Shown here one piece after another: positions 6,118 to 9,868 of a DNA stretch of 64,000 bases. Below the pieces are notes generated by a model that was not told the DNA's origin, made no database searches, and saw only the letters and a program-made list of their open reading frames with translations. Within the stretch, counting starts at the first letter, position 1; the number at the start of each line of letters is the position of its first letter. The stretch comes from Armatimonadota bacterium (lineage in GTDB: Bacteria > Armatimonadota > SYMT01), in assembly GCA_046292385.1 (NCBI GenBank), contig JBKBRF010000017.1, positions 32,001-96,000 of the forward strand, given 5' to 3'. The position numbers and the translations under genes are program-made.

Positions 6118-6906
6118 ATGCGATTTCGCCTGCCGCTTCCGGCGACTCTCCTGGTCGCCCTCGCCTGCGCCGCGGTTCCCGCGCTCTCCGCCGCGCGGCC
6201 CGCGCCGATCCGCGCCGCCGCCACTCCGCAGATCTTTGGGATCTCCCCGGCGCGGGGAGAGCAGGGCGCCTCGCTGACGCTCGTCCTCCAGGGGACCCGC
6301 TTCGAGCACGGCGCGACCGTTAGCCTGGGAGAGGGGATCAGCGTGACGGAAGCGGTGGTGAGCGGGCGGGGAGTCCGGGCGCTGCTCGACCATATCCTGA
6401 CCCTGCGGATCGAGATCGCCGCGGACGCGGAGCCCGGCCCGCGGGATGTGACGGTCACCAACCCCGGCGGCGAGACCGCCGTCGCTCCCGCGGCCTTCGA
6501 GGTGGTCGCTCCACCCCCGGTGCCGCGGCCGGACCTGGCGGGCACCTGGAAGAAGGTGAAGGTCCGGAGCATCCCGGGCCGGCGGGGCGCGGAGGGCAGC
6601 ACCCTCTTCACCGGTACGCTGCAGGTCGCCAACTCCGGTGCCGCGGCGGCGCGCTCGTTCGTGGTGCGGTTCGTCGCGGCGGAGACCGCCGACGGTGAGG
6701 GCGCCCTCCCGCTCGGCAAGCCGAAGAAGGTGGCGCACCGCCTGAAGCCCGGCGCCCGCCACACCGTGAAGCTGAAGGCCCGGCTGCCGCGGAGCGCGCT
6801 CGATCCTACCGGGAAATACCTGCTGGCGCTCCTCGATTCCACCGATCGGGTGGAAGAGGGCGACGAGCAGAACAACGCCGTCGCCTTCGCCCTGCCGGTG
6901 CCGTAG
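6118..6906 (+). CDS. Secreted protein with an IPT/TIG-like Ig domain and a C-terminal CARDB-like domain
   Basis: GGAGG RBS, signal peptide, ISPARGEQG...GPRDVTVTNPGG, PDL...VEEGDEQNN. Confidence 0.7.
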   Translation: MRFRLPLPATLLVALACAAVPALSAARPAPIRAAATPQIFGISPARGEQGASLTLVLQGTRFEHGATVSLGEGISVTEAVVSGRGVRALLDHILTLRIEIAADAEPGPRDVTVTNPGGETAVAPAAFEVVAPPPVPRPDLAGTWKKVKVRSIPGRRGAEGSTLFTGTLQVANSGAAAARSFVVRFVAAETADGEGALPLGKPKKVAHRLKPGARHTVKLKARLPRSALDPTGKYLLALLDSTDRVEEGDEQNNAVAFALPVP

Positions 6907-6965
6907 CAGGTCTCCGAAGGCTCGCGCTCCTCTCGCGCCGGTGCTGAGACCCGGAAAAAAGCCTC

Positions 6966-7015
6966 TTGCGCCTCTGATATCGTGATGATATCATTCTGTC
7001 GTCGTGGTGACATCA
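6966..7015 (+). promoter_or_regulatory. Sigma70-type promoter overlapped by three phased TGAYATCR palindromes
   Basis: -35 TTGCGC 6966-6971, 17-bp spacer, extended -10 TGnTATCAT (hexamer 6989-6994); TGATATCG 6975, TGATATCA 6986, TGACATCA 7008. Confidence 0.7.
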
Positions 7016-7041
7016 GGGGCGAGGGCGGCCATACTGAGCGT

Positions 7042-7242
7042 ATGAGTGACTCGGCACCCCCCAAGAAACGGACGATGACGGCGGTCACCTATCCGAACCG
7101 CCTGCTGCACTACGACGACGACGAGGGAATGGCGCTGCTGCGCGAGATCGCGCGCCGGCACGGGCTCTCCCTCGCGGCGGCGCTGCGGATGCTCGTGAGA
7201 GAGGCCGCGGAGCGCCGCGGGATACGGAAGAAAACGGAATAG
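7042..7242 (+). CDS. Small ribbon-helix-helix (CopG-like) DNA-binding protein
   Basis: 66 aa; strand RLLHY, helix DDEGMALLREIARRHG, helix SLAAALRMLVREAA. Confidence 0.7.
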   Translation: MSDSAPPKKRTMTAVTYPNRLLHYDDDEGMALLREIARRHGLSLAAALRMLVREAAERRGIRKKTE

Positions 7243-7278
7243 GAGCCTATCCCTAGCGAGATCGGCTCTAGACTTTCG

Positions 7279-7348
7279 GCGCGGGCCGAAGTGCCTGGGT
7301 TCTCGTCTGCTAAACGAACCACCCCCAGGCGCACGTGCTTGCCCGCGC
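7279..7348 (+). ncRNA. Y-RNA-like element, type A copy 1 (short hairpin with Ro-binding stem)
   Basis: GCGCGGGC-C-GAAGTGCCTGGG...CCCAGGCGCAC...CTTGCCCGCGC: terminal helix with bulged C; upstream of rsr. Confidence 0.75.
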
Positions 7349-7355
7349 ATCCTTT

Positions 7356-7477
7356 CCAGACGTAGCTCAACGGCAGAGCATCAGGTAAACCCTTCGGCGG
7401 TGACTTGCCCGGAGACGGGCCGGATGTTGAAGGTTAACGGCCCTTGAGGGGTGCAGGTTCGAATCCTGCCGTCTGGT
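7356..7477 (+). ncRNA. tRNA-shaped Y-RNA-like element, type B copy 1 (Ro-binding helix in place of the anticodon loop)
   Basis: Acceptor CCAGACG/CGTCTGG, D arm GCTC-AACGGCA-GAGC, stem TCAGG/CTTGA enclosing 57 nt containing CTTGCCCG-GAGA-CGGGCCGGA, T arm GCAGG-TTCGAAT-CCTGC. Confidence 0.8.
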
Positions 7478-7479
7478 GT

Positions 7480-7582
7480 GAGATGGGCCGCTGCGAATCG
7501 GTTATCGGAGTTCAAGCCTTCCCGTCCCGACCTGTCGGGACGAGCCCACCGGGGGCACCCGATCGCGCTGCTTGCCTGTCTC
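7480..7582 (+). ncRNA. Y-RNA-like element, type C copy 1
   Basis: GAGATGGGC-C-GCTGCGAATCGGTTATC...CCGATCGCG...CTTGCCTGTCTC with internal hairpins. Confidence 0.7.
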
Positions 7583-7588
7583 GCTTTG

Positions 7589-7656
7589 GAAGCGGGCCGG
7601 AGTGCCTGGGTTATCCTGTCACGATGAACCCCAGGCGCATGCAGCTTGCCTGCTTC
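7589..7656 (+). ncRNA. Y-RNA-like element, type A copy 2
   Basis: GAAGCGGGC-C-GGAGTGCCTGGGTTATC...CCCAGGCGC...CTTGCCTGCTTC. Confidence 0.75.
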
Positions 7657-7689
7657 ACTCCTGGGGCTCTCCACGGAGCGGCCCCGGTT

Positions 7690-7812
7690 TCGGACGTAGC
7701 TCAGAGGTAGAGCACCAGGAAACCCCTTCGCTGCTCACTTGCCCGGAGACGGGCCGAAAGCTGAAGGTTACCTATACCCTGGCGGCCGCGGGTTCGAGTC
7801 CCGCCGTCCGGA
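7690..7812 (+). ncRNA. tRNA-shaped Y-RNA-like element, type B copy 2
   Basis: Acceptor TCGGACG/CGTCCGG, D arm GCTC-AGAGGTA-GAGC, stem CCAGG/CCTGG enclosing 58 nt containing CTTGCCCG-GAGA-CGGGCCGAA, T arm GCGGG-TTCGAGT-CCCGC. Confidence 0.8.
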
Positions 7813-7840
7813 GTGTTCGCTCTCCTGGGAGCGGACTTTA

Positions 7841-7933
7841 GAGATGGGCCGCTGCGGCTCGCTTATCGGCACACAGGTGGGCTCGAGACCCACCACCCTT
7901 CGGGGTTGGCGAGCCGCGTCACTTGTCCATCTC
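7841..7933 (+). ncRNA. Y-RNA-like element, type C copy 2
   Basis: GAGATGGGC-C-GCTGCGGCTCGCTTATC...GCGAGCCGCG...CTTGTCCATCTC; internal T-arm-like GTGGG-CTCGAGA-CCCAC and a UUCG hairpin. Confidence 0.7.
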
Positions 7934-8103
7934 AGGTTAGAACCGACCCCGTGGGCAAAACGGGCTGCGCCTGGCTGTGAGGTGCGGATTTGTCGTCGCG
8001 GCGGAACGTCCGATATTCGTCCATATCGACCGTCCCGCCGCTCCTAATCTCCGCCCCTCTCGCTCAGGCTCGCCGTACCTTTGCCTACGCGGACCGGTTC
8101 CTG

Positions 8104-8171
8104 GAAGCGGGCCGGAGTGCCTGGGTTATCTTAGGGAGATAACACCCAGGCGCGCGGAGCTTGCCCGCTTC
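8104..8171 (+). ncRNA. Y-RNA-like element, type A copy 3
   Basis: GAAGCGGGC-C-GGAGTGCCTGGGTTATC...CCCAGGCGC...CTTGCCCGCTTC, 62 nt before the rsr start. Confidence 0.75.
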
Positions 8172-8233
8172 ACCTGTCGGGGTGCGGGGGACAACGGGGT
8201 CTCCCGCACCCTCCGGCCGAGGAGGGCCGTGCC

Positions 8234-9868
8234 ATGACCCAGTACCTGAAGAACGTTTTTTCCGCGCGTCAGACGCCGCAGTCGGAGCCGATCCCCGGCT
8301 CCGGGCAGGTGCCGAACAGCGCGGGCGGGTTCGCCTGGCAGGTCGACGATTGGGCCCGCCTCGATCGCTTCCTGATCCTCGGCAGCGAGGGTGGGTCGTA
8401 CTACGCCTCCGAGCGGAAGCTGACGCTGGAGAACGCGGACGCCGTGGTCCGCTGCCTGGAGGCGGACGGCGAGCGGCTGGTCCGCCGGGTGGTCGAGATC
8501 AGCGAGTCCGGCCGGGCGCCGAAGAACGACCCGGCGATCTTCGCCCTGGCGCTGGCGTGCTCCTTCGGCGACGAGCGGGCGCGCGCGGCGGCGTTCGCGG
8601 CGGTGCCGCGGGTCTGCCGGATCGGGACGCACCTGTTCCACTTCGCGGAGTTCGTAAACGGGATGCGCGGCTGGGGACGCGGGCTGCGGCGCGCCGTGGC
8701 GGCCTGGTACCAGGAGAAGCCGGTGGGGGCGCTTGCGCTGCAGGCGGTGAAGTACCAGCAGCGGGACCGGTGGAGCCACCGGGACCTGCTCCGGCTGGCG
8801 CACCCGGTGCCGGCGGACGAGGACCGCACCGCCCTCTACCGCTGGGTGACCCGCGGGTGGGAGCCGGAGCGGGCGGACCGGTTCGGCCGCGAGGGCGAGC
8901 TGGCGCTGGTCGGCGGCTTCGAGGCGGTGAAGGCGGCCGCCACGGCGGCGGAAGTGGCGGAGTGCATCCGCACCTACCGGCTGCCGCGGGAGGCGGTCCC
9001 GACGCAGTGGCTGACCGACCGCGAGGTGTGGCGGGCGCTGCTGGAGGAGATGCCGATGACCGCGCTGATCCGGAACCTGGCGACGCTGACCCGCGTGGGG
9101 CTGGTGACGCCCGGCTCCGTGGGGACCCGGAAGGTGGTGGAGCAGCTCGGCGACCGGGAGCGGCTCCGGAAGGCGCGCGTGCACCCGATCCAGGTGCTCT
9201 CCGCGCTGAAGACCTACGCCTCCGGCAAGGGCGTGCGCTCCGACCAGAGCTGGGCGCCGGTGCCGCAGGTGGTCGACGCGCTCGACGCGGCGTTCTACGC
9301 GGCGTTCCGGAACGTGGAGCCGACCGGCAAGCGGTGGCTGCTGGCGCTCGACGTCTCCGGCTCGATGGAGTGCGGAGTGATCGCCGGGTGCCCGGGGCTG
9401 ACGCCGCGGGTCGCATCCGCCGCCATGGCGCTGGTCACGGCGGCGGTGGAGAAGCAGTACACGGCGGTAGCGTTCGCCTCCGAGGGGACCTTCGGGTGCC
9501 GGAGCGGGAGCGGGCTGCGGCCCCTGGCGCTCTCCTCGCGACAGCGCCTGGACGACGTGGTGAAGCTGACGCAGGCGCTGCCGTTCGGCGGCACCGACTG
9601 CGCGCTGCCGATGCTCTACGCGCTGGAGCGGAGGCTCGAGGTCGACTGCTTCGTGGTCTACACCGACTCGGAGACGTGGGCCGGAAGCGTCCACCCGGCG
9701 CAGGCGCTGCGGCAGTACCGGGAGTGGATGGGGATCCCGGCCCGGCTGATCGTGGTCGGCATGGTCTCCAACGGGTTTAGCATCGCGGACCCGAACGACC
9801 CCGGCATGCTTGACGTGGTCGGCTTCGACACCGCCACGCCGCAGCTGATGACGGACTTCGCCCGCTGA
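8234..9868 (+). CDS. rsr: Ro60/TROVE-domain RNA-binding protein with vWA domain
   Basis: QVPNSAGGFAW, RLDRFLILGSEGGSYY, KYQQRDRWSHRDLLRLAHP, MPMTALIRNL, ARVHPI, LALDVSGSM, GGTDCALPM, YTDSETW, DPGMLDVVGFD; GAGGAGG RBS. Confidence 0.97.
   Translation: MTQYLKNVFSARQTPQSEPIPGSGQVPNSAGGFAWQVDDWARLDRFLILGSEGGSYYASERKLTLENADAVVRCLEADGERLVRRVVEISESGRAPKNDPAIFALALACSFGDERARAAAFAAVPRVCRIGTHLFHFAEFVNGMRGWGRGLRRAVAAWYQEKPVGALALQAVKYQQRDRWSHRDLLRLAHPVPADEDRTALYRWVTRGWEPERADRFGREGELALVGGFEAVKAAATAAEVAECIRTYRLPREAVPTQWLTDREVWRALLEEMPMTALIRNLATLTRVGLVTPGSVGTRKVVEQLGDRERLRKARVHPIQVLSALKTYASGKGVRSDQSWAPVPQVVDALDAAFYAAFRNVEPTGKRWLLALDVSGSMECGVIAGCPGLTPRVASAAMALVTAAVEKQYTAVAFASEGTFGCRSGSGLRPLALSSRQRLDDVVKLTQALPFGGTDCALPMLYALERRLEVDCFVVYTDSETWAGSVHPAQALRQYREWMGIPARLIVVGMVSNGFSIADPNDPGMLDVVGFDTATPQLMTDFAR

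Follow-up and report, generated by a model that had tools for sequence, protein, structure and literature searches.

A candidate class of Y RNAs in tRNA order, with a loop-closed Ro60-type helix on the anticodon arm, beside rsr in an Armatimonadota bacterium

We have analyzed a stretch of 64,000 nucleotides (nt) from an Armatimonadota bacterium (assembly GCA_046292385.1, contig JBKBRF010000017.1, positions 32,001–96,000 of the forward strand), which is referred to here as the window. It contains an rsr gene encoding a Ro60 orthologue of 544 amino acids (8234–9868), recognized by its TROVE (Pfam, E 5.4e-47) and vWA_Ro60 (E 1.3e-63) domains. The nearest named Rsr proteins are those of Armatimonadota metagenome-assembled genomes (MAGs), with 64–67% identity. 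Between a promoter-like site at 7007–7035 and rsr lie seven Y-RNA-like modules in the order A1-T1-B1-A2-T2-B2-A3; these modules and rsr are all on the + strand. T1 (7356–7477) and T2 (7690–7812) are the main subject of this report. Each consists of a tRNA body with its arms in the normal order and a Ro60-type helix in place of the anticodon loop. Such a tRNA-order Y RNA is called a T unit below, and the group the T class.

A first-pass annotation of the window had described T1 and T2 as cloverleaves, and each of the elements it listed was confirmed by reading of the sequence and by the Rfam tRNA model RF00005. In T1, the acceptor strands occupy 7356–7362 and 7471–7477, the D arm 7365–7379, the anticodon stem 7381–7385 and 7443–7447, and the T arm 7453–7469, with U7477 as the discriminator; the discriminator of T2 is an A. 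The 7-bp acceptor stems (CCAGACG/CGUCUGG in T1 and UCGGACG/CGUCCGG in T2) are followed by UA and then by a GCUC/GAGC D stem. The anticodon stems have 5 bp (UCAGG/CUUGA and CCAGG/CCUGG, respectively), the variable loop has 5 nt, and the T loop reads UUCGA. The two units are 82–88% similar, and where they differ in the acceptor, anticodon or T stem, pairing is maintained, just as the annotation had reported. RF00005 (gathering score 29) covers model positions 1–71 of 71 in both, with 49.6 bits for T1 (E 1.3e-7 for the 64-kb window) and 50.2 bits for T2 (E 8.7e-8), and leaves 56 and 58 nt, respectively, unaligned at the anticodon loop. These are the sole gathering-level Rfam matches within the window. 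A 7-nt anticodon loop with an anticodon is absent from both units, 56–58 nt standing there instead, and ARAGORN makes no tRNA call in the window, T1 and T2 included. RF00005 thus recovers the units; ARAGORN and the Rfam YrlA model RF02553, two of the searches that the annotation had put forward, do not match the native sequence.

The inserts that replace the anticodon loop are 57 nt (T1) and 58 nt (T2) long. In both, a CCUUC...GAAGG stem encloses CUUGCCCG-GAGA-CGGGCCG(G/A)A. The resulting Ro60-type helix consists in T1 (7404–7424) of the 3′ strand CUUGCCCG, a GAGA cap and the 5′ strand CGGGC-C-GGA with a bulged C, and in T2 (7738–7758) of CUUGCCCG, GAGA and CGGGC-C-GAA. A GGUUAAC motif (7432–7438 in T1) begins 16 nt past the start of the Ro 5′ strand. 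The segment GCCGAAAG of T2 fits the Ro motif GNCGAAN0-1G exactly, and GCCGGAUG of T1 deviates from it at one position, the motif being taken from its publication (PMC4201824). In Y RNAs, the Ro helix is formed by the two termini of the molecule, whereas here its strands are joined by the GAGA loop. The swapped strands and the GNRA closure proposed in the annotation can therefore be read directly from the sequence, and the same helix, GGGC-C-G/UUGCCC, recurs in the ordinary orientation in the five neighboring modules (A1–A3 and B1–B2). In the T inserts, the 3′ strand comes first, followed by the cap and then by the 5′ strand.

T1 and T2 belong to a conserved family. The annotation had suggested a covariance-model search near TROVE genes, and this search brought out both the family and strong covariation among 40 copies. 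A model built from T1 and T2 alone (R1) was run on 16 loci fetched by Rsr homology. Full-length matches in tRNA order, with a capped GGGCCG helix, were found just upstream of rsr in seven of these loci (five from Armatimonadota MAGs, one from Caldilineaceae and one from Entotheonella). A second model (R2), with which T1 and T2 score 107.7 and 117.9 bits, was run over 61 genomes related to that of the window. Overall, approximately 45 tRNA-order copies lie beside rsr in relatives of the genome, Armatimonadota, Caldilineaceae, Entotheonella MAGs and metagenomes. Six actinobacterial loci (L009–L011, L014, L017 and L018) are excluded from every count, and the 40-sequence alignment additionally omits L012 and two loci that also contain ordinary tRNAs (L050 and L023).

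Among 19 sequences, 96.0% of the cells are paired, and changes on both sides occur in 25 of the 33 pairs; among 40 sequences, these values are 96.2% and 31 of 33. None of 500 shuffles reaches the observed values for either set, and slid controls are only 35–47% (19 sequences) or 34–47% (40 sequences) paired. An alignment-free check of 45 copies found complete acceptor stems (7/7) in 41, complete T stems (5/5) in 41 and complete D stems (4/4) in 39. In most copies, the T loop is of the UUCGA/UUCAA type and the Ro 5′ strand starts 16 nt before a GGUUAYC motif. The GGG, the bulged C and the G of the Ro motif are kept in 36–39 of 40 copies (38 for the bulged C), and the UU of GGUUAYC is invariant (40/40). 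The caps that close the Ro helix range from 3 to 70 nt, often with only 3–6 nt, and are not conserved, as expected if the cap is a mere connector. The discriminator is C in 24 of the 45 copies, A in 14, U in 5 and G in 2.

The family is linked to rsr. R2 matches longer than 100 nt were found in 12 of the 61 related genomes; rsr lies within 1.5 kb in 10 of these 12 loci and in none of the 18 whose matches were to ordinary tRNAs. A TROVE gene was detected in 16 of the 61 genomes; these 16 include all 12 genomes with listed long matches, and strong R2 matches are restricted to TROVE-bearing genomes. An unfiltered search upstream of rsr in the other four gave a match of 54.5 bits in G005, weaker units of 16–27 bits in G015 and G043, and a marginal one in G030 (14.7 bits, E 0.029). 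A pattern scan for the capped helix returned 2 viral and 42 metagenome loci, and the pattern falls inside an R2 match (E up to 1e-6) in one of the viral and 16 of the metagenome loci. Among the other 26 loci, no D arm was found, and L061 (which shares its contig with L081) was the only one with a paired T arm; many of them resemble coding sequence, so that the capped-helix pattern alone is not specific. In all seven metagenome or viral loci from the pattern scans that hold both rsr and T units, rsr is on the same strand. The T units are downstream of rsr in three loci (L062, L079 and L084), four loci have a single unit (L006, L007, L013 and L052), and in one genome a second pair occurs (L049) for which no rsr is present within ~6 kb. 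As in the window, T units of related loci alternate with small ordinary Y modules, which often start a few nt past the 3′ end of the T unit.

The small modules of the window are of two kinds. A1 (7275–7347; repeat D3/D6, folding z −2.57), A2 (7588–7656; z −3.37) and A3 (8103–8171; z −4.96) are hairpins of ~70 nt. A2 and A3 match the stem-bulge RNA family RF01656 with 32.5 bits (E 2e-4) and 32.1 bits (E 2.6e-4), below its gathering score of 38. B1 (7480–7582; repeat D5, z −2.49), a module of ~100 nt with a terminal stem in its minimum free energy (MFE) fold, starts 3 nt past the T1 discriminator, and B2 (7841–7935; repeat D5, z −3.95) is a second module of this type. A and B modules alike have a terminal stem that corresponds to the ordinary Y-RNA helix, with the 5′ strand first (5′ GGGCCG(G/A)AG, 3′ CUUGCC(C/U)G). 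A1–A3 carry a UGGGUU(A/C)UC motif in addition to this stem, and A2 and A3 are strikingly near the eukaryotic (nematode stem-bulge) consensus. A fixed 22-nt signature, GGGCCG-N10-GGUUAYC, is present in nearly every related rsr locus. At the head of the array, the promoter-like site overlaps an inverted repeat (~6978–6996, TGATATC...GATATCA) and is followed by a small open reading frame (7043–7242, starting with ATG), for which Pfam gave no match and which may encode a small regulator heading the Y-RNA/rsr unit.

Several other loci deserve description. L062, a viral-classed contig of 47 kb from IMG/VR, contains the 3′ end of rsr and, ~1 kb downstream, two T-class units (101 and 49 bits) together with several tRNAs. 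Mycobacteriophages carry YrlA, and by analogy phages may also carry the T class. Beside rsr in L020 (943–1085) is a unit with a tRNA frame in which the anticodon region is a long, near-perfect, AU-rich hairpin that lacks the Ro motif; it adds a third type of unit without an anticodon to its array. Approximately ten tRNAs adjoin the T units of L050, which belongs to the phylum of the window. In the window's genome, ARAGORN reports a neighboring pair of tRNAs at G000 C5:199142–199303 whose anticodons have four letters (ctct and cgaa), as well as several over-long tRNAs (85–97 nt: Thr, Cys and Arg). Some soil-metagenome contigs join position 7714 to 7787 or 7789 with ~20 other letters in between. 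These were considered as a spliced form of T2 and rejected, as their match to the D and T arms of T2 comes from ordinary tRNAs of other organisms.

YrlA has been described as a tRNA in circular permutation whose acceptor is closed by a loop and whose termini are at the Ro stem (PMC4201824; bioRxiv 10.1101/312249). The fold of the T units is conserved, the units are linked to rsr, and they contain the parts of YrlA in rotated order. These observations support the view that T1 and T2 are circular permutations of the YrlA design, in which the tRNA order is retained and the anticodon loop is replaced by a strand-swapped, capped Ro60-type helix. Judged from sequence, T1 and T2 are probably Y RNAs of an undescribed topological class, consisting of a tRNA body and a loop-closed Y-RNA stem on the anticodon arm. 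This stem comprises an upper stem, an internal loop and the bulged Ro60-type helix, and the loop closes it at the end where the termini of Y RNAs usually lie. The annotation knew of no description of this topology, and none was found in a full-text literature collection from which many subscription papers are missing.

A mechanism can be proposed on this basis. The array A1-T1-B1-A2-T2-B2-(A3) would be transcribed on the rsr strand. Each T unit would be matured in the manner of resident tRNAs: RNase P would generate its 5′ end, RNase Z or exonucleases would trim it to the discriminator, and CCA would be added by the CCA-adding enzyme. Because the small modules often begin a few nt past the T discriminator, the same cuts would also free these ordinary Y RNAs from between the T units, in a form of tRNA punctuation. 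Rsr would bind the capped, bulged helix, and the tRNA-like L-shape, placed relative to Rsr as in YrlA, would serve as an effector-binding module, for which PNPase is a known candidate partner. The T class would thus differ from YrlA solely in the position of the open backbone.

We infer that T units are processed by RNase P and RNase Z, receive CCA and are bound by Rsr. The window's genome contains the RNase P RNA (265.7 bits), RNase Z (339 bits), a PolyA_pol/CCA-type enzyme (94.8 bits) and PNPase (952 bits). T1 and T2 have no encoded CCA, as the annotation had stated. This is uninformative, since resident tRNA genes mostly lack an encoded CCA as well (a CCA is present at the gene end or flank in only 7 of 56 ARAGORN tRNA calls of the genome); among the relatives, CCA follows 6 of 46 T-unit copies. 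The further suggestion that T units might be aminoacylated finds no support, because they have no conserved acceptor identity element (G3-U70 occurs in just 3 of 40 copies), no anticodon and a variable discriminator.

A number of observations weigh against this interpretation. The first base pairs of the acceptor stems, C1-G72 in T1 and U1-G72 in T2, are unusual among bacterial tRNAs and might weaken cleavage by RNase P. The folding z of the full unit is −2.11 for T1 and only −0.82 for T2. Additionally, the MFE fold of T2 differs from the cloverleaf, which energy alone does not single out; that the structure is beyond chance follows from its conservation among relatives and not from folding energy. 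The relatives' genomes are non-independent samples. Fitting of the covariation alignments to the model also favors the structure, a bias that the alignment-free check of 45 copies offsets only in part. Of 20 sequencing-run rows that share part of the window, a single one comes from an RNA library, which contains 5% of the sampled words. A contig from this library, from a close relative, spans 7845–8111, which corresponds to B2 and spacer and not to T1 or T2; the other contigs are two short tRNA-like pieces, and such contigs cannot show RNA ends. Finally, the 3′ acceptor strand of T1 pairs 7/7 with the 5′ strand of T2 (five Watson-Crick and two G-U pairs), a point that is taken up below.

The alternative that survives best is that T units act only in cis, either as processing punctuation or as Rsr sites in an rsr leader that autoregulates rsr. 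The whole array is located between the promoter-like site and rsr, with A3 ending 62 nt before the start codon, and T units alternate with small Y modules, all of which would suit such a role. However, conservation extends to the complete tRNA elbow (U8, the variable loop and the D and T loops), well past the needs of RNase P or RNase Z, and the units downstream of rsr, as well as the L049 pair that has no nearby rsr, clash with a role confined to the leader. We consider a purely cis-acting role unlikely, and a role in cis is compatible with T units being tRNA-order Y RNAs, the two explanations not being exclusive.

A second alternative reads a canonical YrlA across neighboring units, from the Ro 5′ strand of one unit to the D arm of the next, with the RNA ends in the cap loop. 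The 7/7 pairing between T1 and T2 fits this reading, as do equivalent cross-unit acceptor pairs at 6 of 23 tandem junctions, a number that includes the junction of the window. A precedent for confusion between the two readings comes from the actinobacterial loci, in which long R1 hits had appeared to be members of the T family. These hits were rejected, since the L011 reading spans two neighboring canonical YrlAs and the hits are truly cross-unit readings of tandem canonical YrlAs; the reverse was therefore tested for the T class. The same actinobacterial loci have 10–20 ordinary tRNA genes per 3 kb upstream of their tandem YrlA-like RNAs and rsr. Table S1 of Chen et al. (2014; PMC4201824) lists a 128-nt “YrlA” in Fimbriimonas ginsengisoli (Armatimonadetes), considered here by its name and length alone, which may be a cross-unit reading of the T class.

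The annotation itself had named a canonical YrlA assembled across units as the case that would speak against it, and the family does not fit that case. The acceptor pairs within units average 6.92/7 (n = 36), compared to 5.13/7 across units (n = 23), and 9 of the 23 junctions have four or fewer cross pairs. Single-unit loci exist, the caps in which the RNA would have to end are frequently only 3–6 nt long, and the spacers between units, which contain other modules, vary from 7 to 381 nt. At the rsr locus, no match to RF02553 (gathering score 69 bits) was obtained with E up to 10, nor was one obtained in eight related loci with E up to 0.01, and the best hits of this model in the window's genome (≤27 bits) are tandem ordinary tRNAs; this silence is weak evidence, since the model also has no match on canonical-looking actinobacterial YrlAs (E up to 0.01). 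It is the family, through its single units and short caps, and not the locus of the window alone, that excludes the cross-unit reading, which we regard as highly improbable.

The weakest alternative, in which T1 and T2 are intron-bearing tRNA genes whose 57–58 nt insert is spliced out to yield a decoding tRNA, draws on the full tRNA frame and on the location of the insert at the site of tRNA introns, but it is scarcely credible, as a T unit without the conserved stem would have no 7-nt anticodon loop (in T1, UAAAC and UUAACGGCC flank the stem), no group I or other intron family matches 6900–8300 (E up to 10), the insert is the most conserved part of the T units and bears the Ro motif, the genes lie beside rsr and only in TROVE genomes, and no parent isoacceptor was found among the resident tRNAs, none of which the units closely resemble. 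The introns known from bacterial tRNAs belong to group I and are at least about 200 nt in length.

To our knowledge, bacterial Y RNAs with a tRNA-like domain have been known only as permuted tRNAs (YrlA) or as the Yrn1 type. As a widespread group of tRNA-order Y RNAs, the T class bears on the origin of tRNA-like Y RNAs and on the purpose of their tRNA mimicry. It would account for rsr genes that lack a detectable YrlA in Armatimonadota and in some Chloroflexota; standard annotation overlooks T genes or, like Rfam, labels them as tRNAs. Natural Y RNAs with a free acceptor end, as predicted here, would make processing, CCA addition and charging directly testable. Tentatively, the tRNA order could also be ancestral: a tRNA would have gained a Ro60-binding hairpin on its anticodon arm and kept a tRNA-like maturation with CCA, and YrlA would have arisen from tandem copies by duplication and trimming. 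Tight tandems with spacers of 7–16 nt exist, in which the 3′ half of one unit and the 5′ half of the next spell a YrlA. Under this hypothesis, the T class would be an intermediate between tRNA and YrlA, and it offers a concrete route that complements the dimeric-tRNA idea of bioRxiv 10.1101/312249. If the T class is indeed ancestral, Rsr would be tethered to a molecule recognizable by the CCA enzyme, by modification enzymes and perhaps by EF-Tu or the ribosome.

Compared to ordinary tRNAs (RF00005), T units have the same acceptor, D and T arms, variable loop and elbow letters. They differ in that they lack an anticodon loop, are rejected by ARAGORN and are not close to resident isoacceptors. 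With metazoan Y RNAs and nematode stem-bulge RNAs (RF01656), they share the bulged helix and a motif of the UGGGUUAUC type found in the RF01656 consensus. In contrast to T units, those RNAs contain no tRNA-like domain, and their helix is made by the RNA termini.

In Yrn1 of D. radiodurans, the Ro helix is at the acceptor position (PMC4201824). Yrn1 and the T units both have a tRNA-like module in which D precedes T. However, the Ro helix of Yrn1 replaces the acceptor and an anticodon-like arm is kept, whereas in T units the helix replaces the anticodon loop and the acceptor is free. The Y RNAs of M. smegmatis stem from one precursor upstream of rsr, and the YrlA of this species is cut by RNase P and has CCA added in vivo (PMC4201824). 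The likeness to T units extends to the 7-bp acceptor stem and to the real acceptor end, CCA and precursor upstream of rsr that are predicted for T units. The difference is that the acceptor end of M. smegmatis YrlA results from cutting of a permuted transcript, which yields two pieces with ends at the Ro stem, whereas a T unit is predicted to be a single piece that ends at the acceptor and not at the Ro stem.

The published YrlA-II alignment (PMC4201824) runs from the Ro 5′ motif through GGTTAYC, the variable region, the T arm, the acceptor and the D arm to the 3′ strand. T units likewise have rsr as a same-strand neighbor, a Ro 5′ motif followed by GGUUAYC, a variable region and the T arm, tRNA-like D and T arms, and a Ro helix carried by the counterpart of the anticodon stem. 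YrlA proceeds from T through the acceptor to D and ends at the Ro helix; in contrast, T units end at the acceptor, and it is their Ro helix that is closed.

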